Numbered from the stretch's first letter, positions 1 through 14,305 are shown. The stretch is 64,000 nt of DNA from Mobula hypostoma (GCF_963921235.1 NC_086097.1:107572001-107636000); one strand, 5' to 3'. Notes: a model not told the origin generated them from the letters alone. Program-made: numbers and translations.

Positions 1-166
1 CTTTATTGCACTGCAACTCATCCCAATGGCTACAAATTTGCCCCATCACCTGCCTGTCTTTCCTGACATCTTTACTGCTCACTATCTTAGATTTATTTCT
101 GTTTTCCCCTTCCTCCACTCTATCATTCCGGTTCCCATCCCCCTGCCAAATTAGTGTAAACCCTCC

Positions 167-1084
167 CTAACAGCTATTAAATTTTCCCGCCAGGATATTG
201 GTCCCCTTCGGGTTCAGGTGTAACCTGTCCTTTTTGAACAGGTCATACTTCCCCCAGAAGAGATCCCAATTATCTAAGAATCTGAAGCCCTGCCCCCTAC
301 ACCAGTCTCTCAGCCATGCATTCATCTGCCTGATCCGACTACTCTTGCCCTCGCTAGCACGTGGCACAGGTAGCAATCCCGAGATTACTACCCTGGAGGT
401 CCTGCTTCTCAGCTTCCTTCCTAACTCCTGGAAATCTCTCTTCAGGACCTCCTCCTTTGTCCTATCTATGTCATTGGTACCAACATGTACCAAGACAACT
501 GGCTGCTCACCGTCCCCCTTTAGAATATTAAGGACCCGATCCGAGACATCCCGTACCCTGGCACCTGGGAGGCAACACACCATGCGGGTATCTCTGTCAG
601 GCTCACAGAATCTCCCATCTGTTCCCTTGACTATGGAATCCCCTACGACTACCGCATTTCTCTTCTCCCTCCTTCTCTCCTGCACAACAGCGCCAGGCTC
701 AGTGCCAGAGACCCGGTCACCGTGGGCGTCCTCTGTCAGGTCATCCCCCTCAACAGCATCCAGAACAAGATATTTGTTGCTGAGGGGGACAGCCACAGGT
801 CTGCTCTCCACTATCCGAGCATTTCCCTTCCCTCTCTTGACAGTGACCCAGTTTTCTGACTCCTGTAGCCTAGGGATGACTATCTCCCTGTAGCTCCTGT
901 CTATCACCTCTTCACTTTCCCTGATAAGCAGTAGGTCATCAAGCTGCAGTTCCAGATCCCTAACACGGTCTCTGAGGAGCTGCATCTCGGTGCACCTGGC
1001 GCAGATGTGGCCATCAGGGAGGCTGGAGGTCTCCCAGGATTCCCACATCTGACACCCTGAACAAAGCACTAACCCTGCAGGCAT
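167..1084 (-). CDS. CR1 LINE ORF1p (Cys-rich/leucine-zipper N-terminus plus SGNH/GDSL esterase-like domain)
   Basis: 305-aa ORF with CxxC...CxxC (CSGC, CARC) and a heptad-Leu stretch (LRDRVRDLELQLDDL). SGNH blocks are VVVGDSIV, PGARV, HVGTND and DRLHLN. The last few codons may be frameshifted. Confidence 0.88.
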   Translation of the reverse strand: MPAGLVLCSGCQMWESWETSSLPDGHICARCTEMQLLRDRVRDLELQLDDLLLIRESEEVIDRSYREIVIPRLQESENWVTVKRGKGNARIVESRPVAVPLSNKYLVLDAVEGDDLTEDAHGDRVSGTEPGAVVQERRREKRNAVVVGDSIVKGTDGRFCEPDRDTRMVCCLPGARVRDVSDRVLNILKGDGEQPVVLVHVGTNDIDRTKEEVLKRDFQELGRKLRSRTSRVVISGLLPVPRASEGKSSRIRQMNAWLRDWCRGQGFRFLDNWDLFWGKYDLFKKDRLHLNPKGTNILAGKFNSC

Positions 1085-1363
1085 TCTACCTAATTCTACA
1101 GGAATGAAACAGGAAAAATAAGTCTACTCACCCACCTACCTCACCAAACGGACGAACTTTTAAAATCGTTAGCTTGTACTGTTAGCTGTGAGAGCCCTGC
1201 TGTTCCTGTCTGTCCGGGCCGATTCGCGAAAGGGGTGGGGGGGAGAAAAAAAGAGTTGATGCCACGCTGTCGCCTGTTCCTGTTTACCGCCGAAGCCCGT
1301 TGAAGCCAAAGCCCTACGCTCTGCTACCGCTCACTCCGCTGCCCGCTGTATAGGGTGGTCTCC

Positions 1364-1397
1364 TTTTTAAACTCTCCATGCGGTCCTGTTGACGTCA
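1364..1397 (-). promoter_or_regulatory. Candidate internal promoter motifs in the CR1 5'UTR (perfect CRE palindrome and TATA-like element)
   Basis: TGACGTCA at 1390-1397, followed on the minus strand by TTTAAAAA at 1371-1364, in a CpG-rich leader. This is a motif match only. Confidence 0.35.
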
Positions 1398-1497
1398 TGC
1401 GCCTGCACAGTCTCGCCCTTCTTGCACTGGAAGAAGTTTTGAAAAAAACTGCCTTCCTTCAGAATTCAGCTCCCACGACGCTCTGTAGTCCCGATCC

Positions 1498-3472
1498 AAA
1501 AGCAAAGGAGAGGGCATATAAGGAAGCAGAAATTAGTGGGAAGACAGAGGATTGGGAAGTTTTTAAAAGCTTACAAAAGGAAACTAAGAAGGTCATTAAC
1601 AGGGAAAAGATTAACTATGAAAGGAAGCTAGCAAATAATATCAAAGAGGATATTAAAAGCTTTTTCAAGTATATAAAGGGTAAAAGACAGGTGAGAGTAG
1701 ATATAGGACCAATAGATAATTATGCTGGAGAAGTTGTAATAGGAGATAAGGAGATGGCGGAGGAACTGAATGAGTATTTTTCATCAGTCTTCACTGAGGA
1801 AGACATCGGCAGTATACCGGACACTCAATGGTGGCAGGGAAGAGAAGTGTGCGCAGTCACAATTACGACATAGAAAGTCTCAGGAAGCTGAATAGTCTAA
1901 AGGTAGATAAATCTCCTGGACCAGATGGAATGCACCCTCGTGTTCTGAAGGAAGTAGCTGTGGAGATTGCAGAGGCATTAGTGATGATCTTTCAAAAGTC
2001 GATAGATTCTGGCATGGTTTCGGAGGACTGGAAGATTGAAAATGTCACTCCGCTATTTAAGAAGGGGGCAAGGAAGCAAAAAGGAAATTATAGACCTGTT
2101 AGCTTGACATCGGTGGTTGGGAAGTTGTTGGAGTTGATTGTCAAGGATGAGGTTACAGAGTACCTGGAGGCATATGACAAGATAGGCAGAACTCAGCATG
2201 GATTCCTTAAAGGAAAATCCTGCCTGACAAACCTATTACAATTTTTTGAGGAAATTACAAGTCGGCTAGACAAGGGAGATGCAGTGGATGTTTTATATTT
2301 GGATTTTCAGAAGGCCTTTGACAAGGTGCCACTCATGAGGCTACGTAACAAGATAAGAGCCCATGGGATTATGGGAAAGTTACATATGTGGATAGAGCAT
2401 TGGCTGATTGGCAGGAAACAGAGAGTGGGAATAAAGGGATCCTATTCTGGTCGGCTGCCGTTTACCAGTGGTGTTCCACAGGGGTCTGTGTTGGGGCCGC
2501 TTCTTTTCAGATTGTACATCAACGATTTGGATTATGGAATAGGTGGCTTTGTGGCTAAGTTTGCTGATGATACGAAGATAGGTGGAGGGGCCGGTAGTGC
2601 TGATGAAATGGAGAGTCTGCAGAGAGACTTGGATAGATTGGAAGAATGGGCAAAGAAGTGGCAAATGAAATACAATGTTGGAAAGTGTATGGTTATGCAC
2701 TTTGGCAGAAGAAATAAACGGGCAGACTATCATTTAGATGGGGAAATAATTCAAAGTTCTGAGATGCAACGGGACTTGGGAGTCCTTGTATAGGATACCC
2801 TTAAGGTTAACCTCCAGGTTCAGTCGGTGGTGAAGAAGGCAAATGCAATGTTGGCACTCATTTCTAGAGGAATAAAGTATAGGAGCAGGGATGTGATGTT
2901 GAGGCTCTATAAGGCACTGGTGAGACCTCACTTGGAGTACTGTGGGCAGTTTTGGTCTCCTTATTTAAGAAAGGATGTGCTGACATTGGAGAGGGTTCAG
3001 AGAAGATTCACTAGAATGATTCCAGGAATGAGAGGGTTAACATATGAAGAACGTTTGTCCGCTCTTGGACTGTATTCCTTGGAGTTTGGAAGAATGAGGG
3101 GGGACCTCATAGTAACATTTCGAATGTCGAAAGGCATGGACAGAATGGATGTGGTAAAGTTGTTTCCCATGATGTGGGAGTCTAGCACAAGAGGGCATGA
3201 CTTAAAGATTGAAGGGCACCCATTCAGTACAGAAGTGCGAAGAAATTTTTTTAGCCAGAGGGTGGTGAATCTATGGAATTTGTTGCCATGGGCAGCAGTG
3301 GAGGCCAAGTCATTGGGTGTATCTGAGGCAGAGATTGATAGGTATCTGAGTAGCCAGGGCATCAAAGGTTATGGTGAGAAGGCGGGGGAGTGGGACTAAA
3401 TGGGAGAATGGATCAGCTCATGATAAAATGGTGGAGCAGACTCAATGGGCCAAATGGCCTTTGTCTTATGGT
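1498..3472 (+). mobile_element. CR1 LINE 3' half, with disrupted ORF2 reverse transcriptase and 3'UTR/tail
   Basis: Motifs KSPGPDGMHPRVLKE, NYRPVSLTS, QHGF, YLDFQKAFDKV, GVPQGSVLGP, KFADDTK and LVRPHLEYC. Frameshift near 1870 and premature TAG at 2791-2793. Ends in the tail ...GGCCTTTGTCTTATGGT. Confidence 0.95.
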
Positions 3473-4080
3473 TTTAACTGAGGGTGTGATTCTCATGTGG
3501 AACAAGGCCAGAGGTAATACCTTAGGCCAGGTTAGCCCAGTTTCTTACATAAGTTTAGTTGGCTTATTCCTTAAGGTTCCATTTGCTCGTTCCACTATAC
3601 CAGCTGCTCTTGGATGGTGAGCGCAGTGAAGTTGCTGTCTGATTGCCAGTTCTTTTACAGATGTTCTCATTTACTTTGGCTACAAAGTGCGGTCCATTGT
3701 CTGAGCTTATCATTTTCAGGAGTCCATAACGGGGAATCACTTCTCTTAATAATATTTTTACAACAGTATTATCAGTAGTGGGTATAGCCTCTATCTGCTA
3801 AATACATCTACTATTAACAAGCAATATTTACGACAACGTACTCTGGGTAGTTCTATAAAATCAAGTTGCAGACAAGAAAATGGTCCACCAGGCAAGGGGG
3901 TAGTTCCGGAAACACACGGCATTCCCTTTCCAGCATTCATTTTTTTTCCACAAGCTGTGGCTCGCCTTTCAACTGCTTGCTGGAAATCAGGGCACCACCG
4001 CCACCAAGATATTAACCATTCCCTCCTTGCCCAAGTATGTACAATTATTTACATCATCTATCAAGATAGATAAGAACACA
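3473..4080 (-). pseudogene. ERV integrase (degraded)
   Basis: Manual minus-strand translation gives GPFSCLQLDFIELP...LLIVDVFSR, EVIPRYGL..ISSDNGPHFVAKV, HHPRAAGIVERANGTL and WPKVLPLALFHMRITPS (D,D,E core visible), with stops and frameshifts. Confidence 0.9.
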
Positions 4081-4277
4081 AACCTGTCTAGCAGGGGTCA
4101 CCCATAAATTGGTCTGAGGTTCAAGGTGGCAACCCATTTGGGACCATAGCTTGCGCTCTCCTTCAGGGGCGTCCCCCGCAAGTTCCATATTTTCCCCCAT
4201 ATCTGGCATACGCGTCCTTAGGTTTTTGTCTAATAAGGTGTTAGGCTCCTGAGGGGACTAAAAGTGTGGGGTCCAAG

Positions 4278-4944
4278 ACTGCCTGTTTTGCTGCTGCACC
4301 AGCCCAAGTATTACCCTTAAATATCTCATCAGATTCTCCAGTATAGGCTGCACATCTAATAATAGCCAAAACTCGAGGTAGCTGTAGAGCTGTGTGTAAG
4401 TTGTTTACAAAGGTAGCATTACTTATGGTGGGGGGGGCAGAGGAAGTCAGGAAACCCCAGAGTTCTGTAGTCAGGGCATAACGGGAGTCTATGTAGAAGT
4501 CCGCACTTTAATCTGTTTGAGATTTCTTTACCACAGGCTTTTTCATTTTAAAATTCGAAACGTTAATTAAAGAGGATTCCAGCTTAGGCTTGTACTTTTG
4601 GCTCCTCCACTGAAGCCCTCGTTCAGGCCCTTTTTATTTTGTTCCAAATAGTTGTGGACTCCCTCTTCAAAGTCATCTTCATTTATGACTTGGTGTTTTT
4701 TTTAAGGTCTTCTACAAAGAATTGGTTCTGTGGTGGATTCTTCAAAATCAGAACTGAGTACACTGTTAGACTAGTCTGTTTCTAAGGTTCAGGCATGAGT
4801 CAGAGCAAGTAGCTCAGCTTTCTGGGCGGAGACAGCTGCTGCAAAGGAGACTTGCTTAACTACTTCACTGTCGTCGCTTATCACATAGACAGAACATCAT
4901 TTTCCTGTTGGATCCACAAAAGAGCTTCCATCCTCATAAAATGT
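4278..4944 (-). pseudogene. ERV RNase H (degraded, split by a 263-bp insertion)
   Basis: Motifs FYEDGSSFVD, SAQKAELLAL, FYIDSRYA, LPRVLAIIRCAAY and GNTWAGAAAKQA occur in canonical order. Confidence 0.88.
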
Positions 4945-5195
4945 TGCCTCGGGTTTGAGGGGGTATTGCGGAAGGGGTGGGAGAGTCTATCCTTGTTTCA
5001 TGGTGGGGGAGGGGTGCAGTTGCTGTGACCGACTTCATGGCCTGAAATTGCCCAGAGATGGAGTACAACGTCTTGGGTTCCGTCAGTATTAAAAGTGTCT
5101 CACCAGATGTCCCATCTTCACCTTTGACTCCTTCCAGTATCGGAGCTGGCCCACGGCCAAGTCCCGCCAGTGTCCCTCGGTGCTGGTTTGTTTCG

Positions 5196-5486
5196 TCAGG
5201 GTGTAGGCAAGGAATCCAGGCTCTTTGGCTTGAATCCAGGGCAAAGCCTATCGGTGATATGGGGAACCATCGGTCCTGTCTGTCGCCAGAGGAAATCTAG
5301 AACTTCAGCCAGTAATACACTGCCCCCTCTTCCTTTAACCTTTCCAATCACCGTGACTGGGAACTTCTGTCCCTCGAGGGGTGCATAATACTGGTTTTCC
5401 TCAGTGAAGCACCCTGTAGGACCATAGCACAGAGTCACATGAGGGTCTGCCTCTGGCAGAGAGGGTTCAAACGAAGTGGAGTCCAA
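5196..5486 (-). pseudogene. 2H-phosphoesterase-like domain within the ERV pro-pol region
   Basis: Open 96-codon stretch with two HxT motifs, PHVTL and PHIT, 60 residues apart. It lies between the protease C-terminus and the RT N-terminus. Confidence 0.7.
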
Positions 5487-5539
5487 ATTAAGTGCCCATC
5501 ACCGGAGGGGGAGGGGTCAGTTTTTCATTAGTCCCAGGG

Positions 5540-5800
5540 TGATACCCTTGTCCGTGCATAGAATCTCGATTTCCGGCGGACAGAACAAGTCTCATTCTGC
5601 TAGATTACACCTCAGACTGGTAGTGACTGTAAATTAAACCTCACACTGGGTCCCCTTGGAATTTCACCTGCAGTGGCTGGGTACGTGAATATGTACGTTC
5701 TGTGCCTTCGAACCCAGTGTGATTGTAGCGTCTGATAGCCGGTATCCCTTTTCCTATACCATCATAAACGGAATTAGAATTGCAGCATCTTGCAATATTA
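5540..5800 (-). pseudogene. ERV protease remnant (C-terminal part only)
   Basis: Contains a flap-like TGFEG and CNLAE*DLFC...I.CTDKG, resembling the NLLGRDLL motif. No D(T/S)G active site is visible. Confidence 0.55.
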
Positions 5801-5896
5801 TATTTGGCTCTTCCTGAGGGGTGGTACTCACGGTAGGAAGCATCCTTCTTCCTGCTGAACATATTCACCTTTAATGTTAGTTCCCTTCGGGGTTGA

Positions 5897-8057
5897 TCAG
5901 GATTTGAAAGCTGGGTCCCAGTCATATGTCAAAGCTCGTCGCATTCGATTTCGGTCATTGTCAGGCCAATCCATATTATTAGTTTTAATCCTGTTGGCTA
6001 ATTTAGTTGGCAAACACTTGAGTAGTAGGGCATTAAACTGGGGGAACAGATTCCCATTATTAAAGGCTTGGTCTCCTGTGAAAGTGCCGTAGCAGGCCAT
6101 AAATCGCTCCCAATAGGCTGGTCCCAATTTCCCAGGCTTAGGTTTGCATTCAAGTACTTTAGGGATATTTACAGGTTGTTGGAGAGCCTTCTCCAAGGCT
6201 TGAATAATCGGGTCTGTCTGTTCATCCTCATTATGGATTCCTGCCGGTAACTCCTGATAAGTTTGGTACCTTAATTCTGCCTTCCATTTCCGCCCCTCAT
6301 CAGATGAGAGAATCATGCAGCAAAGACAAAATAAATCTTGCGGTACTGCGGACATACCAAGCAAACTGTGCTGGTTTTTCTTTTCTTTCGGGAGCCTGAT
6401 TCATGATCGTTAACATCTCTTGAGGCTTCCAGGGTGCATACAAGAGTTACTGAGGGCTGTCCCTCCTCGGCTGCTCATGGACTGGGCAGCATTTGGGTAG
6501 GCAATCTCTGTGGAGCCCTTAACTCTGGGGCTTTATTGGATTCTTCCCTCCCTGTCTCAGAATAATCCCTGGTATTCCCTTTCTGAATCTCAGGGTACAG
6601 GAAGCCTTCCCTTCCCTGCCACTACTGTTTTACCCGAGTGGCCACCGTATCTGAGTACTGGGAGGATTGGGGTTCGGAAGCACTGGGTGCACTCGGCCTC
6701 TGGTAAGGTGGGGGATAAGGTGGGTGCCCAATCCTCATCGCGGTCACTGTCCTTAAACAGGGTCAATAGACAATAGACAATAGGTGCAGGAGTAGGCCAT
6801 TCAGCCCTTCAAGCCAGCACTGCCATTCACTGTGATCATAGCTGATCATCCACAATCAGTATCCAGTTCCTGCCTTATCACCATAACCTTTGATTCCGCT
6901 ATCTTTAAGAGCTCTATCCATCTCTTTTTTGAAAGCATCCAGAGACTTGGCCTCCACAGCCTTCTGGATTCCATATATCCACCACTCTCTGGGTGAAAAA
7001 GTTTTTCCTTAACTCCGTTCTAAATGGCCTACCCCTAATTCTTAAACTGTGGCCTCTGGTTCTGGACTCACCCATCAGCGGGAACATGCTTCCTGCCTCC
7101 AGCGTGTCCAATCCCTTAATAATCTTATATGTTTCAATAAGATCCCCTCTCAGCCTTCTAAATTCCAGAGTATACAAGCCCAGTCACTCCAATCTTTCGA
7201 CATATGACAGTCCCTCCATCCCGGGAATTAAACTTGTGAACCTAAGCTGCACTCCCTCAATAGCAAGAATGTCCTTCCTTAAATTTGGAGACCAAAACTG
7301 CACACAGTACTCCAGGTGTGGTCTCACCAAGGCCCTGTACAGCTGTAGAAGGACCTCTTTGCTCTTATACTCAATTCTCCTTGTTATGAAGGCCAGCATG
7401 CCATTAGCTTTCTTTACTGCCTGCTGTACTTGCATGCTTGCTTTCAGTGACTGATGTACAAGAACACCTAGATCTCGTTGTGCTTCTCCTTTTCCTAACT
7501 TGACTCCATTTAGATAATAATCTGCCTTCCCGTTCTTACCACCAAAGTGGATAACCTCACATTTATCCACATTAAACTGCACCTGCCATGTTGGTATGCC
7601 AGATATGGGTTCGGGATCCCGTATTGGCCCTAGATCTTCGCACGTGGCACTGCCGATTTTAATCCTTCCTGTCTGTCCATATCTGCTTTTGCCTGTTTTC
7701 TTTGTTTCTCTCTTTCTTCTCTCTTCTACCCATTAGCACTCCACTCCGCCTGCAGTGTCTCCCAACTCTTGGGAGTCCCTTCTGCCGTACATACCTCTAT
7801 CCCTTAATCACATGCATTATTCCTCCAGCTGGCCAGTAAGGCACCATTCCATTTAGTGTAGGCTCTACTTTTCCATTCTTTAATCAATAATTTCCACTTT
7901 TTACCGCAATTCTTTTCCCAAATTAAATTTACTGCTTGTCTCCCCTGGTGGCCACACTGTTTCCCTAGTTTCTTTGTTAGCGCTGCACTTAACATCCGGA
8001 GGTCCTTTTCTTATCCGGTATTCGTTCACACATAGCTGTATCAAGAGCCTGTCCCAT
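5897..8057 (-). pseudogene. ERV gag (MA-CA), interrupted by a CR1 insertion at 6764-7589
   Basis: ATG at 8057 reads MGQALDT (myristoylation-type start). Also present are an MA-like VWPPG, a Pro-rich linker and YAPWKPQEM. The capsid/MHR-like ORF at 5897-6364 reads VNIPKVLECKPKPG...YWERFMACYGTFTG. Confidence 0.8.
6764..7589 (-). mobile_element. 5'-truncated CR1 LINE inserted in ERV gag
   Basis: ORF2 C-terminus reads QFNVDKC, LVRPHLEYCVQFWSP, RRLRGDLIE and FFTQRVV. The 3' tail is (CTATTGT)n, seen as CAATAGA repeats at 6764-6783. This tail differs from the other CR1 copies. Confidence 0.93.
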
Positions 8058-8085
8058 TATTGCCTTTATCAGTTGTTCTTAATTA

Positions 8086-8146
8086 TCAAGTCAAGTCAAG
8101 TATGTAGCACATTTAAAAACAACCACGTTGACCAGGGTGCTGTACA
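8086..8146 (-). mobile_element. Possible short L2-type LINE/SINE 3' tail in the ERV leader
   Basis: (TCAAG)3 microsatellite followed by GCACATTTAAAAACAACC..GTTGACC..GTGCTGTAC, resembling fish L2 3' ends from memory. Confidence 0.4.
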
Positions 8147-8914
8147 AAGTAAAGCAAGTAGCCAAAATCACAAATACACAAAACACAGACAAACCAATGA
8201 GACAAACAGCTTATAGACACAAAATACACAACACAAGGGTTTAGGCACAAGCCACTGGGTGAGAAATTCAGCCAGCCTGCCTCCCCCTTAATCACTTTCA
8301 ACCAGCCATATTATCAGGAAGCAGCTGATATGGTCAAATCCGTCAGGTAGTGGTGGCCACCTCTCCTGACTGGGGTCCCCAGTCCCGACTCTTTCCTTAG
8401 GAACAATACAGAATACCCAATGTCTCCTGCAGCCTTTAATTCTCACAAAAACTGCTAGCCTATTTTCTGTTAATACTCGCAAAAAAAAACAACTCTCACG
8501 TACTCTGGAGGCCTTTCTTCCTTTATCCTGAACTTGTCTCATTAAATTTCAACTGGCCATATTTCTGCTGCCAAGTTGAGAATTTAACCGGGCTGCCAGT
8601 CTTGTATTAATTACAAATTTCAACCAGCCATATTGTGAGACATGCGCAACCCCTTTTCCGAATCATCAAATTTCAACCGGCCATACCGTCACCCGCAGCA
8701 ATGTAAAAGAGACAACTGCTTACCTTAAATTCTGTATCCAAATGGGTCGTCCGATCCCGTCAAGGTACCAGTCCCAATGGGCGAGGGGCAAAAATGCTCA
8801 ATTGGACACAAGGAGTAGCCAGAGGTAAACTACCTCAGGGCACCTGCTACTCATTGTGTTTGATTCAAGCCCCCTGTCACTTACTCAGCCCAGAGAGACG
8901 TCCCCTATGTTGGG

Positions 8915-8932
8915 ATCTGAGTCACGGCACCA
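8915..8932 (-). promoter_or_regulatory. Primer binding site, tRNA-His
   Basis: Minus strand reads TGGTGCCGTGACTCAGAT, a 17/18 match to the complement of the tRNA-His 3' end (TGGTGCCGTGACTCGGAT), 2 nt after the LTR-terminal CA. Confidence 0.9.
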
Positions 8933-8934
8933 AA

Positions 8935-9504
8935 TGTACACGTAACTTTGCTAGATCAATTAACGACAGCACAAAAAGATCGTTACTTATCTTTCCACCC
9001 ATTTATTTCTTCAAGCTCAGCCGGCGAGTGAACTTAGACCCGACATCAGGGAGAGACCCTTTCTCATCTCCCCGGCGGTTCTACAAGTTCACTGCCCGAT
9101 GTCAGAATTGTCAGAAGTTATAAAGCCACCGATACAAAAGAACAATCAGTTTGATAACTATTCCGGCCAAGCCAATGGACTATTGATACAAAAGTACAAT
9201 CAATTTGTTAGACACTCCAGCCACCTTAATTAAAGAAAGGAATGTCCTACCTGGTTTGCTGGAGCCACAACTTAATTACAAAGATAAGAACATCCGTCAA
9301 ATTTATGCTTTAAATAAGAAAGGAATGTTCTGTCTAATTTCCATCAGGGACTGCTTTTTGTCAAAATCAAAAGGTGTGAAAAGCCCAGAGACATCTGATG
9401 TGGATCTGGGCGAACTTTAATCATCTTGCTCCAAAGAAGGCAGCTGTGAGACATTAGTCAAACACACTGCAGTCACCGACATAGTACTGAATCCATTGTT
9501 TACA
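8935..9504 (-). repeat. ERV 5' LTR (~570 bp)
   Basis: Minus strand runs TGTAAAC...GTGTACA (imperfect terminal inverted repeat). It has a TATA-like TTTATAA near 9118-9124 and AATAAA at 9002-9007, and abuts the PBS. The outer boundary is less certain (alternative TG at 9453). Confidence 0.78.
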
Positions 9505-9616
9505 GGGATCTGAGAATCCCCCATTCCCTTAAACTTTATCAAAAGCTATTGGCTGGAGGGTAAATGGCAGGGGATTCTTCCCTTCAGGAATGAGAGAACA
9601 AATATATGGATCCTAA

Positions 9617-10293
9617 GCAACACTCACAACACGCTGGAGGAACTCAGCAGGTCAGGCAGCATCCGTGGAAAAGATCGGTCGATGTTTTGGGCCGGAACCC
9701 TTCGTCAGGACTGTAGGGGGAAGGGGCAGAGGCCCTATAAAGAAGGTGGGGGAGGGTGGGAAGGAGAAGGCTAGTAGGTTCCAGGTGAAAAACCAGTAAG
9801 GGGAAAGATAAAGGGGTGGGGGAGGGGAAGCAGGGAGGTGATAGGCAGGAAAGGTGAAGAAGGAATAGGGGAAAACACAATGGGTAGTAGAAGGAGGCAG
9901 AACCAAGAGGGAGGAGGTAGGCAGCTGGGGAAGGGGCAGAGAGACATAGGGATAGGGGAAATGGGAGGGGGAGGGAATTACCAGAAGTTGGAGAATTCTA
10001 TGTTCATACCAAGGGGCTGGAGACTACCTAGACGGTATATGAGGCGTTGCTCCTCCAACCTGAGTTCAGCCTCATCATGGCAGTAGAGGAGGCCATGTAT
10101 AGACATATCTGAATAGGAGTGGGAAGCAGAGTTGAAGTGGGTGGCTACTGGGAGATCCTGTCTGTTTTGGCGGACAGAGCGGAGGTGCTCGACGAAGCGG
10201 TCCCCCAATCTGCGTCGGGTTTCACCGATGTGCCTCCAGCGTGTTGTGAGTGTTGCTTTGACCCCAGTATCTGCAGGTTATCTTGTGTTTTAA
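9617..10293 (-). mobile_element. Penelope-like element, 5'-truncated (GIY-YIG endonuclease C-terminus plus pseudo-LTR), with an inverted pLTR piece
   Basis: Translates as IGETRRRLGDRFVEH...PVATHFN...EQRLIYRLGSLQPLGMNIEF. A 26-bp inverted repeat sits at 9615-9640 / 10233-10258, and the flanking 11-bp direct repeat ATGGATCCTAA at 9606-9616 and 10294-10304. Confidence 0.9.
9676..9713 (-). ncRNA. Decayed minimal hammerhead ribozyme in the Penelope pLTR
   Basis: Minus strand reads CAGTC CTGACGA AGGG TTCCGG CCC AAAA C ATC GACCG. The CUGANGA box and stem II are intact; the GAAA box is mutated to AAAA and GTC to ATC. Confidence 0.7.
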
Positions 10294-10439
10294 ATGGATC
10301 CTAAAATGGCTCTGAGATTGGAATTGGGAATTGCAAATTGAAACCCAAGGAAACGGAATGAAATTCTTTCACTGCTTGTGATGCGGATTTGGAAGTAAAC
10401 TGATACTACACAAATTAGAATAAAGATCACTTCTAACAT

Positions 10440-10920
10440 GGAAGAAGGTCACTCACCTGATACTAACCTTGCTTGTATAAAAAGAGCCCCCTAATCCTAA
10501 TTTCCAGCGTTCAATTGATTACTATGCAGCTAGTGCCTTTCTAATACAGTACATAAACTTTTTTAAAAAGGTGACAAGAGTTTCTGCCTCTGTCACATTT
10601 CAGATGGTGAGTTCCAGATTCATACTGTCCACCAGCAAAAACAGTTTACCTTCCCCCAGTCCTTCTAGCGATTACTTTAAATCCATGCCCTTTGTTTTTC
10701 ACTGCTTTCATTAATCCTTCCTATTTATTCAGTCTTGCATGTTCATCATTTATTACATTTTCCAATGAAAACAACACTACCTTCTCCAATCTTTCCTTAT
10801 AGGTACCATTTCCCAGTCCTTACAGCATCCTCGTCAATCTCCTGTATACTCTCCAGTGTAATTTCTTCTTTCCTGTGCTGTGGAGTTCAGAATGAACACA
10901 GTTTTCCAAATATGGCCTAA
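10440..10920 (-). mobile_element. Old, heavily diverged CR1 3' fragment
   Basis: Degenerate similarity to the reverse complement of the CR1 ORF2 end (for example 10825-10920 resembles 7225-7330). Confidence 0.55.
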
Positions 10921-10944
10921 AACATCAGGCCAGTACTGGACCTC

Positions 10945-13805
10945 AAGAGCTAGAATTTGTAGAATGTCTAACAGATGGCTTTTTAGAACAGCTGGTGTTG
11001 AGCCCACTAGGGGATCAGCTGTGCTGGATTGGGTGTTGTGCAATGATCCGGAGATGATAATAGAGTTTAAGATTAAGGAACCTTTAGGGAGCAATGATCA
11101 CAATATGATCAAGTTCACTTTGAAATTTGAGAAGGAGAAACTAAATTCCAATGTGTTGGTATTTCAGTGGAATAAAGGAAATTACAATGGCCTGAGAAGT
11201 GAACTGGCCAAAGTTGACTGGAAAGGGACACTAGCAGGAAGGACAGCAGAGCAGCAAGACTGGAGTTTCTGTGAAAAATGAGGGAAGTGCAAGACAGATA
11301 TTTTCCAAATAAGAAGGAATTTTCAAATGCAAGAAGGACACTATCATGGCTGCAAGTGAAGTCAGAGTGGAAGTAAAAGCAAAGGGGCATACAAGGAAGC
11401 CAAAGCTAGTGGGAAGATAGAGGATTGGGAAGCTTTTAAAAACTATGAAAGGAAACTAATATCAAAGAAGATACTAAATGCTTTTAAGTATATAAAGGGC
11501 AAGAGAGAGTTGAGGGTAGATATAGGACGAATAGAAAATGACGCTGGAGATATTGTAATGAGGGACACAGTGATGGCAGAGGAACTGAATGTGTATTTTC
11601 CATCAGTCTTCACAGTGGAAGACATCTGCAGTATACCAGACATTCAAGAGTGTCGGCTAAATGAAGTACGTGCAGTGAAAATTACGACTGAGAAGGTGCT
11701 CAGGAAACTTAATGGACTGAGGGTAGATAAATCTCCTGGACCTGATGGAATGCACCCTCGCATTCTGAAGGAAGTAACTGGAGAGATTGCGGAGGCATTA
11801 ACAATGATCTTTCAAGAATTGATAGATTCTGACATTGTACCAGGTGACTGGAAAATTGCAAATGTTACTCTGCTATTTAAGTAGGGTGGGAAGCAGCAGA
11901 AAGGAAACTATAGACGTGTTAGCCTGACATCAGTGGTTGGGAAGTTGTTGGAATCGATTGTTAGGGATGAGGTTACGGAGTACCTGGAGACACATGACAA
12001 GATAGGCCAAAGCCAGCATAGTTTCCTCAAAGGAAAATCCGGCCTGACTAATCTACTGCAATTTTTTGAGGAAATTACAAGCAGGGTAGACAAAGCAGAT
12101 GCAGTCGATGTGGTGTACTTGGATTTTCAGGTGTTTGACAAGGTGCTGCACATGAGGCTGCTTATCAAGATAAGAGTCCATGGAATTACAATGGAGTTAC
12201 TAGCATGGGTGGGGCATTGGCTGATCAACAGAAAACAGAGAGTGGGAATAAAGGGATCCTATTCTGTTTGGTTGCCGGTTACCAGTAGAGTTCCACAGGG
12301 TTCGGTGTTGGGACTGCTGCTTTTTACGATGTATGTCAATGATTTGGACTATGAAATTAATGGATTTGTGACTAAATTTGCTGATGATACAAAGATAGGT
12401 GGAGGAGCGGGTAGTGTTGAGGAAACAGGGAGCCTGCAGAGAGACTTAGATAGTTTAGGGAAATGGGCAAAGAAGTGGCAAATGAAATACAATGTTGGAA
12501 AGTGTATGGCCATACATTTTGGTGGAAGAAATAAACGGGCAAACTATTATTTAGATGGGGAGAAAATTCAAAATGCAGAGATGCAAAATGTATTGGGAGT
12601 TCTTGTGCAGGATACCCTAAAGGTTAACCTCCAGGTTGAGTTGGTGGTGCAGAAAGCGAATGTAATGTTGGCATTCATTTCTAGAGGTATAGAATCTAAG
12701 AGCAGGGATGTGGTGTTGAGGCTCTATAAAGCACTCGTGAGACCACACTTGGAGTATTATGTGCAGTTTTAGGCTCTTTATTTTAGAAAAGATATACTGA
12801 CATTGGAAAGGGTTCAGAGAACATTCACGAGAATGATTCCAGTAATGAAAGGATTGCTGTATGAGGAACGTCTGACAGCCCTTGGGCTGTATTCCCTTGG
12901 AGTTCAGGAGAATGAGGGGGATCTCATAGAAACATTCCAAACGTTAAAAGGCCTGAACAGATTAGATATGGCAAAATTATTTCCCATGGTAGTGGAGTCT
13001 AGGACAAGAGGGCATGACTTCAGTATTGAAGAACGTCCATTTAGAACAGAGATGTGGAGAAATTAGTCAGAGAGTGGTAAATCTGTGGAATTTGTTTCCA
13101 GGAGCAGCTGTAGAGGCCAAGTCATTGGGTGTATTTAAGGCAGAGAAAGATTGATTCTTGATTAGCCAGGGCATCAAAGGGTAAGGGGAGAAGGCAGGGG
13201 AGTGGGGATGACTGGAAAAGCTGGATCAGCCCATAATTGAATGGCGGAGCAGACTCGATTTGAAGAAGTTTTTGAAGATATTGGGGATGCAGGGGTTAAT
13301 GACCTTCAAGGACTTTGTACTCTGTTAGCATAAGTTGCATCCTTTGTTTTTTGCTTTTTGCAGCTGAGGTTGTGAAATAGCTAAGCTACTTCTTTGTTTC
13401 AATCAAGGACAGAACTGTCTGATTCTGTAGAGTAACAGATGTGTGTGTGTGACAAACACTTTGAGGCTGACTACTTCTTTGTCTGGCTTTCTGTATCTTG
13501 TAGTTTGACAAACCTGTACTAAGAATTGGAAAACAACTCCATATATGGATAAGATGGCCTCTTTGAATTGTATAAACGTTGCTGTATGTAACCTACCGAT
13601 AGAAGTCCGGTACAAGCTCCACGAGGGAGAGGAACTTTGTCCCTCTGGTAGCCAGCTCCGGAGCTTCTTGCCGGCTGAGTTTGAATAAATAAACTGGTGA
13701 AAAGGATAAAGTAAAGAACTGTTTGTAGTGTGGTTATTGGTCCAGCAAATTTAAGTTTATAGATGGGCCAATTGGCCTATTTCTGCTCCTATATCTTATG
13801 GTCTT
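10945..13805 (+). mobile_element. 5'-truncated CR1 LINE (endonuclease C-terminus, RT and 3' tail), same family as 1498-3472
   Basis: Motifs EPTRGSAVLDWVLCN, LGSNDHNMI, KSPGPDG, PQGSVLG and KFADDTK, with several stops and frameshifts. The tail is split after GACTC at ~13256 and resumes GATGGGCC...TCTTATGGTCTT at 13762. Confidence 0.93.
13261..13761 (+). mobile_element. Probable solo LTR (~500 bp) inserted in the CR1 3' tail
   Basis: Interrupts an otherwise contiguous CR1 tail. Starts TG and ends TA (possibly a mutated CA), flanked by GATT/GATG. Has TATAAA at ~13572 and AATAAA at 13685. Confidence 0.6.
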
Positions 13806-14305
13806 AAACAGTTTTGAATATAACTCAAGCATAATCTGACAACTCTTGTACTCTCTGACTTGTCTAATAAAGGAAAACATTATATGCCATTTTAACCAAC
13901 ATATTGACCTCTTCACTAGCTTGGAACTAGTTTTATCAGACTTCTCTCTCTGGAGTGTTGGGATGAAATGCTACCATGCTATCCAAAAAACTCAGCATTG
14001 TGGATGGGCCGCCAAGACATCAGTGTTGCTTAAGCTCCAAAACTCCAAGCTCATGCTTCTCAGTCACTCCTGTAGCTGAGGTTGTCCTGGACATGTTGGA
14101 GTTTAAGACTGCCTTTATATTAGATTATAATGAAACCACTTCTGCCACTTACTACAGCAAACTTACCTACTCATTAAAAATAACAAGTTTTATACTCTGG
14201 AAAAAATATACTTATACACTAATACACTAAATACTCTAATGAATGACAAAATTATTGTCATTAGTGCCAAAACTATCTGAGAAATTGTTGAAAGAATATT
14301 GGTTT

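Follow-up and report, generated by a model that had tools for sequence, protein, structure and literature searches.

A 2H-superfamily domain with a predicted CNPase-like fold between protease and reverse transcriptase of endogenous retroviruses in cartilaginous fishes

CNPase converts 2',3'-cyclic phosphates to 2'-phosphates, and so does the CPD domain of fungal tRNA ligase, which acts on the 2',3'-cyclic phosphate ends of RNA. In CNPase the catalytic domain follows a kinase-like domain, and the CPD domain belongs to a cellular RNA repair enzyme composed of three domains. Other enzymes of the same 2H superfamily cut 2-5A or cyclic dinucleotides, and a likeness in fold does not fix the substrate. 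The viral 2',5'-phosphodiesterases (MHV ns2, MERS-type NS4b, the C-terminal domain of rotavirus VP3 and a domain of torovirus pp1a) and the phage protein Acb1 also belong to this superfamily and carry its HxT/S motifs; they stand alone or within proteins of RNA viruses and phages. Small nucleotide-metabolising accessory enzymes within Gag-Pro-Pol are familiar from the dUTPase of betaretroviruses and non-primate lentiviruses, which is unrelated to the 2H domains in fold and chemistry. For fish retroviruses, 2H modules are already in print: a module of this kind is described for walleye dermal sarcoma virus (PMC9503650, section 3.4.5, citing Mazumder et al., 2002), and some epsilon-like endogenous retroviruses (ERVs) of ray-finned fishes are stated to encode a CNPase (PMC4977317, citing Basta et al., 2009). 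The first-pass annotation of the DNA studied here, which named such modules as reported from some retroviral polyproteins, was right in this respect. Among the papers listed by full-text literature searches there was no assay of any retroviral 2H domain.

The locus described here is of the same kind, a 2H domain in a class I retrovirus of fishes, and its hosts are cartilaginous fishes. It lies in a stretch of 64,000 nucleotides from Mobula hypostoma (contig C1:107572001-107636000), called the window in the following, in which positions are counted from the first letter. The element is a truncated class I (gamma/epsilon-like) ERV on the minus strand with the gene order gag - protease - RT - RNase H - integrase, of which the RT is mostly deleted. 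The N-terminal part of gag (MGQALDT...; 7592..8072, minus strand) was recognized by tblastn and translation and the C-terminal part (5843..6515, minus strand) by mapping of the element. Between them translation identified a fragment of a LINE RT C-terminus (..FNVDKCEVIHFGG..; about 6900-7590, minus strand), which splits gag in two. The retroviral protease (5530..5846, minus strand), found by tblastn with the protease-bearing ORFs of the genomic copies L033, L037, L041 and L035, is degraded: one stop at 5594-5592 falls inside its ..NLAGRDLL.. motif and further stops follow at 5519-5517 and 5501-5499. Element mapping places the whole 2H module at 5498 to about 5058 (minus strand). It is followed by an RT stub that extends to QYPLKPEA (4945..5048, minus strand), in which translation shows the first 35 or so RT residues, and which is fused to RNase H at about 4945/4944; the missing RT amounts to about 1.35 kb in RT-bearing relatives. 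The RNase H region (4187..4944, minus strand; translation and element mapping) contains stops and frameshifts, and the integrase (3467..4227, minus strand) is indicated by weak Pfam rve matches (E 0.0015 and 0.042). At about 3467 the provirus stops against a LINE, with no env gene or 3' LTR found, and positions 1-14000 of the window hold no LTR-like direct repeat. In relatives the RT can be matched to that of MMLV at E 6e-45, with LW[AS] aligned to the initial QAW of MMLV RT chains.

Other repeats lie near the provirus. LINE copies occupy 167-3399 and 11360-13215; two plus-strand copies (1512-3403 and 11385-13215) are 78-84% alike, and plus-strand RT ORFs lie at 1798-2793 and 11885-12772 (RVT_1, E 4e-31 and 1e-19). 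A LINE ORF on the minus strand (167-1123) encodes a GDSL-type esterase domain (Lipase_GDSL_2, E 3.6e-15). Another minus-strand ORF of 99 aa (9978-10277; ..GETRRRLGDRFVEHLRSV..) had no Pfam match at E<=0.001 and presumably resembles a repeat-borne nuclease-type motif.

The module itself was met as a stop-to-stop open frame of 100 aa at 5498..5196 on the minus strand, which reads WALNLDSTSF...PHVTLCYG...PHITDRLCPGFKPKSLDSLPTP, given also as WALNLDSTSFEPSLPEADPHVTLCYG...MVPHITDRLCPGFKPKSLDSLPTP. The His codon of PHVTL lies at 5441-5439, behind a Pro codon at 5444, and that of PHITD at 5261-5259, behind a Pro codon at 5264 (all minus strand), which gives a His-His distance of 60 residues. Upstream of the frame is the C-terminus of the protease, and downstream are LWAIS (5057-5049) and QYPLKPEA (ending at about 4945), the initial motifs of a gamma-type RT. 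Translation thus bears out the first-pass annotation as to a motif pair 60 aa apart in one frame between protease and RT. Its statement that the module is still open holds for the uninterrupted frame of 100 aa; this frame is joined to neither protease nor RT, however, and its last six or so residues are out of frame.

Alignment to the sister copy L035 (49% identity), which was used for structure prediction, assigns 5218..5498 (minus strand) to the N-terminal 94 or so residues of a 2H (CNPase-like) domain; this open part would contain strand 1 (WALNLD), PHVTL, a helix, a beta-hairpin and PHITD. Behind a 1-nt deletion at 5218/5217, the frame continues into an out-of-frame tail (..DSLPTP and TGA; 5196..5217, minus strand). 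The C-terminal part of the domain is found in the shifted frame (GFLAYTLTKQ...GQLRYWKESKVKMGHLVRHF; 5092..5217, minus strand), where it agrees with what L037, L033 and L032 continue to read in frame and ends with a stop at 5091-5089 (minus strand). After a second frame break near 5092-5099 the domain end and the first RT residues (..FNTDGTQDVVLHLWA; 5049..5099, minus strand) are read in the first frame again, as seen from translation and from LW[AS] against QAW. With stops in the protease, the 1-nt deletion, further breaks and the deleted RT, the copy in the window is dead. The extent of 96 aa first given to the module proved too short, as the full domain comprises about 153 aa in open copies, from W[AG][LI][NS]LD to just ahead of LWA.

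In the 3.48 Gb genome of the animal at least 150 matches to the window peptide were found, with identities of 46-100%, and 55 of the 150 matches listed have a stop inside the match. The copy nearest to the window shares 90.1% of its DNA sequence. The same out-of-frame ending, ..L[PLS][TK]P followed by a stop, closes 25 of the 30 closest copies, the window included; two more of the 30 (L006 and L030) show the same out-of-frame residues, which are missing from the other three (L009, L014 and L026). When 12 copies were aligned at the DNA level, this ending could be traced to the deletion at 5218/5217: it is present in the window and in L015, L022, L002, L017 and L013, that is in all six copies chosen for their tail, and the deleted base is retained in all six in-frame copies (L037, L033, L026, L009, L035 and L042). 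The last six residues of the ORF and the TGA are out of frame because of this deletion. Programmed recoding of the conserved TGA that follows ..LPTP, by read-through or by frameshift, had been considered as well and was rejected, since the stop follows a shared 1-nt deletion and autonomous relatives as well as other species read straight through this position.

Judged by the spans of the matching segments (HSPs), the RT-deletion junction of the window is common to 24 of the 30 closest copies, the remaining six being uninformative; L034, L035, L038 and L041-L043 have an RT between the two HSPs. The copy in the window is therefore a member of an old subfamily which was amplified after the loss of RT and the frameshift in the module, and this mode of spread suggests that the subfamily was non-autonomous. 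The first-pass annotation had noted that the module was kept while RT was lost. This is no sign of selection, since the RT deletion (24/30) and the frameshift (25-27/30) are both common to the subfamily, and the survival of the module beyond the RT says nothing on selection.

Module and RT lie in one open frame in L033, L035, L037 and L042, the protease is also continuous with them in L033 and L035, and L032 consists of the module alone. A profile of 15 copies was run against 1.84 billion representative proteins and gave 15 matches at E<=1e-3: ten retroviral fragments or polyproteins, along with five repeat proteins that are unrelated. The retroviral matches include P0006 from Leucoraja erinacea, a Pol protein of 1225 aa with protease, HHVTLAYD...APHLTLKV, RT, RNase H and integrase; the near-identical P0029 of the same species was the sole other match to its region 118-290 in a word-index search. 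A word-index search for longer relatives with a module profile yielded none among 8000 candidates, and a profile search of IMG/VR viral contigs with the module alignment found no relative. In one further predicted protein, P0005 (892 aa), ERV module and RT are joined to many C2H2 zinc fingers in a long array; it is either a chimera of the gene model or a real fusion of ERV and zinc finger sequences.

A second profile search led to a second lineage (P0015-P0028; PLHVTLYYD...IPHVTLAV), with Chiloscyllium punctatum and Narcine bancroftii among the named sources of these matches. At least three further ERV lineages whose 2H module is longer, but likewise placed between protease and RT, were found in the genome of M. 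hypostoma itself (L045-L074, L075-L094). Lineage 3 (..NVFWIGDIEDQIWETWEKW..ELHCTVIFD..EPHITLLV..), a relative of lineage 2, has at least 95 matches there, located between protease and RT, many of them in open frames of several hundred residues; lineage 4 (LHFTAWY..PHLTLAM) and a form like P0003 occur in the same genome. Lineages 2-4 have a strand-helix unit ahead of the first motif, of which the helix is absent from lineage 1, to which the window belongs. In an hhalign comparison lineages 1 and 3 were aligned with a probability of 94.2% (E 1.2e-7) and with both His motifs in register.

A 57-row alignment gave the first His in 46 of 51 rows and the first Thr in 47 of 51; conservation peaks at the second His (55/56), and the second Thr was found in 48 of 56 rows with Ser in six more. 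Conservation of both HxT motifs thus extends from sibling copies to further ERV lineages and to other species. The Asp at the fourth place of the second motif in the window copy (HITD) occurs in only 2 of the 24 rows of lineage 1, and in five old copies (L002, L003, L007, L008 and L010) Asn replaces the first His. By these alignments the domain is conserved across four ERV lineages and several species of cartilaginous fishes.

For structure prediction a protein of 164 aa encoded by L035:2991-3482 was used in place of the window peptide, to which it is 49% identical. A first AlphaFold model from 15 rows of the same lineage reached a pLDDT of 33; with the 57-row alignment, AlphaFold2 gave a model with a pLDDT of 83.0 and a pTM of 0.76. 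In this model each His marks the start of a strand (E31-37 and E91-96), and the pairs of His and their motifs would be placed in a cleft. The two H-x-T motifs stand at strand starts in CNPase as well.

Foldseek against the PDB returned 49 matches at E<=1e-3, and all of the matches listed are CNPase, RICH or the kinase/CPD part of fungal tRNA ligase, with 6u05 at the top (E 1.9e-5). VIA-align against 48,161 chains placed CNPase first (2xmi, Z 13.8, rmsd 3.2 A, 144 residues aligned), followed as runner-up clade by the CPDase of Deinococcus (5h7f, Z 8.1); ranks 1-17 are all 2H proteins, and LigT, ThpR, plant CPDase, Acb1, VP3, ns2, Usb1, a poxvirus cGAMP PDE, AKAP18 and ASCC1 appear at Z 5.1-6.9. 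A second structural comparison resulted in Z values of 13.0-13.9 for CNPase, 11.8 for 6u05 (PF08302, tRNA_lig_CPD; over chain residues 637-832), 11.8 for RICH, 10.0 for the NMR structure of rat CNP, 7.2 for VP3 and 6.8 for LigT. CNPase and RICH (2xmi, 1woj, 2ilx, 2i3e; PF05881) are thus the best structural matches by a wide margin, with 139-144 of the 164 residues superimposed at 2.3-3.5 A. The identity to them is only 13-15%, however, the retroviral domain is about 60 residues shorter and the His spacing is 60 in the lineage of the window versus 79 in mouse CNPase (H230 and H309 according to PDB titles); moreover, the retroviral module is embedded in Pol, unlike the CNPase domain behind its kinase-like partner. 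The fold comparison proposed by the first-pass annotation accordingly returned a 2H match, on the sister copy, and the proposal of a 2H-superfamily module between protease and RT agrees with the motifs and with the predicted fold of that copy. By its motifs and the predicted fold of the sister copy the module is a 2H-superfamily domain, with CNPase, RICH and the CPD domain of tRNA ligase as the closest folds.

An ordinary linker between protease and RT that happens to contain two HxT triplets would be the simplest alternative. The motif pair, taken alone, is indeed weak evidence: single PH[VIL]T motifs are no commoner in the six-frame translation of the window than in shuffled sequences (4 observed, 3.7 expected), and Pfam has no match at E<=1 for the 100-aa window peptide. 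Pairs 40-100 aa apart in a single open stretch number one in the window and were met in 1 of 200 shuffles. A linker could be about 110 aa shorter than the module, which moreover is conserved across species and lineages and yields a confident 2H model in L035. The results on fold and conservation refute the chance reading, which we regard as hardly credible; they, rather than the motif pair alone, are the reason why the domain in the window is counted as real.

Sequence searches gave no more than leads. No Pfam family reaches its curated cut-off for any module. 2H families head the listings below threshold: Acb1 at E 0.002-0.067 in all four lineage-3 modules and at 0.31-0.32 in lineage 1, 2_5_RNA_ligase2 at E 0.014-0.075 in three of five lineage-2 proteins and LigT_PEase at E 0.076 in 2 of 13; GCV_T_C, Hen1_Lam_C, ASY3-like, T4_RIIA1 and EH_Signature are the non-2H rows found there. 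Searches of the M. hypostoma genome with Pfam Acb1 and 2_5_RNA_ligase2 gave no match (as controls, Acb1 matched nowhere and PF13563 matched in 11 of 14 genomes). Sequence searches of the PDB with module profiles returned no 2H protein and only weak, unrelated matches; the profile of the 57-row alignment matched RT only, because RT columns were inside the profile. In the ESM Atlas, tRNA_lig_CPD stands on 25 of the 30 nearest named clusters of the lineage-1 module with scores of 0.95-0.96, at a recognition value of 2291, which is borderline.

The CNPase model PF05881 (cut-off 25 bits) matched none of the modules at E<=10 and matched the host gene at 143.9 bits, so that at this cut-off the modules would not be placed in the CNPase family by sequence. 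An hhalign comparison of module profiles with the host's own CNPase exon gave a probability of less than 1%. For these two reasons the capture of the module from a host CNPase/RICH gene stays plausible only. The host CNPase exons (L095-L100) are located at two places, C91:33.776-33.782 Mb and 33.954-33.962 Mb, with identical translations in a different exon order, which may reflect a duplication or an assembly artefact.

The top three matches of the L035 model in BFVD are all proteins of fish retroviruses, namely one of walleye epidermal hyperplasia virus 1 (4.6e-8), Q2VF30_1 (7e-7) and one of walleye dermal sarcoma virus (6.4e-6). The matched walleye proteins Q9WHI8 and A4GTG3 (1317 and 1159 aa; TMq 0.65-0.68) are labelled as envelope polyprotein and not as Pol. 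If this label is right, the 2H module of the walleye viruses resides in a different polyprotein and its placement may differ from the one described here; the same fold would then have been captured or moved more than once.

Our preferred reading is that the window holds the front two-thirds of a Pol-encoded 2H domain, which would have served the living virus as a CNPase-like cyclic phosphodiesterase and of which this copy is a dead remnant; we give it a probability of about 0.55. As its position suggests, the domain would be made within Gag-Pro-Pol, packaged in the particle and cut out by the viral protease. With its two His-x-Thr motifs it would then hydrolyse 2',3'-cyclic phosphates, of nucleotides or of RNA ends, to 2'-phosphates. 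This would probably serve to deal with the products of metal-independent host RNases or to keep the 3' ends of RNA in a usable state.

Coronavirus ns2/NS4b, rotavirus VP3, phage Acb1 and the poxvirus cGAMP phosphodiesterases belong to this superfamily too and have its catalytic motifs, and these are the model enzymes for another role, that of an antagonist of innate immunity which destroys nucleotide second messengers such as 2-5A, 2'3'-cGAMP or other cyclic oligonucleotides. Such enzymes appear in the structural lists (Acb1 7t27 at Z 6.7, VP3 at 6.6-7.2, MHV ns2 at 6.5, penguinpox cGAMP PDE at 5.5) and in BFVD (Acb1 5e-3, HKU5 ORF4b 0.068), for lineage 3 the strongest Pfam lead is Acb1 (E 0.002, below the cut-off), and an enzyme carried inside Pol would be in place when reverse transcription produces DNA open to sensing by the host. 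These matches reach about half the Z of CNPase, RICH and CPD (11.8-13.9), however, and a Z under 8 lies in the range which the tool itself calls common. The viral 2',5'-phosphodiesterases and Acb1 (Z 6.5-7.2; BFVD E 5e-3 to 0.07) are clearly more distant than the CNPase clade, VP3, ns2 and AKAP18 score Z 5.4-7.2 against the L035 model and show no sequence match to it, and their free-standing or RNA-virus and phage context differs from a module inside Pol. No significant sequence match supports the antagonist either; none was found for the tRNA-ligase CPD. The role in antagonizing 2-5A or cyclic-dinucleotide signals, which the first-pass annotation had offered beside RNA processing, is weakened by the Z values of 11.8-13.9 for CNPase, RICH and CPD versus 5.5-7.2 for VP3, ns2, Acb1 and the poxvirus PDE, and we consider it unlikely.

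Substitution rates bear on whether the domain was functional at all. In lineage 3, comparisons between the two subfamilies gave an omega of 0.17-0.28 for the module, 0.18-0.59 for the protease part and 0.11-0.14 for the RT part, based on eight pairs with clean borders; two of the ten pairs, both with L050, were left out because a border motif was missed and module and RT were pooled. Between the subfamilies of lineage 1 dN is 0.29-0.47 with dS saturated, and within the subfamily of the window dN/dS is 0.45-0.79. According to these rates, purifying selection acted on the domain in the time when the viruses were active, and its trace between subfamilies implies that it mattered to the replicating viruses.

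This also touches the idea of a 2H fold devoid of catalysis, which might for instance bind RNA or Gag or serve as a spacer in the timing of protease and RT maturation, with lineage 1 possibly an inactive relic already. The missing helix and the short His-His spacing of lineage 1 would fit such a role, as would the several old copies with Asn for the first His. The losses of motif residues are confined to decayed copies, however, the two His and two Thr/Ser columns rank with the best conserved of the whole alignment, which covers lineage 1 and other species as well, and selection between subfamilies speaks for a working domain. We therefore hold a non-catalytic module for quite improbable, more so than the antagonist, and retain the cyclic phosphodiesterase as the preferred reading.

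As far as the sources cited at the outset go, 2H/CNPase modules in fish retroviruses were known already and the window contributes a further member; the copy itself is a fossil of little significance. The present analysis adds rays, skates and sharks to the fishes whose retroviruses carry the 2H module, finds the protease-RT junction occupied by it in several lineages, describes a reduced form that lacks the first helix and indicates, from the substitution rates, that the module was under purifying selection. Speculatively, retroviruses of cartilaginous fishes may have kept, under purifying selection and in no fewer than four lineages, a host-derived CNPase-like enzyme in Pol, one that was delivered with the virion against a defence acting via 2',3'-cyclic-phosphate RNA ends or 2'-5'-linked signals. 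We give this wider proposal a low probability; if true, the domain would be a recurrent retroviral accessory enzyme on a par with dUTPase.
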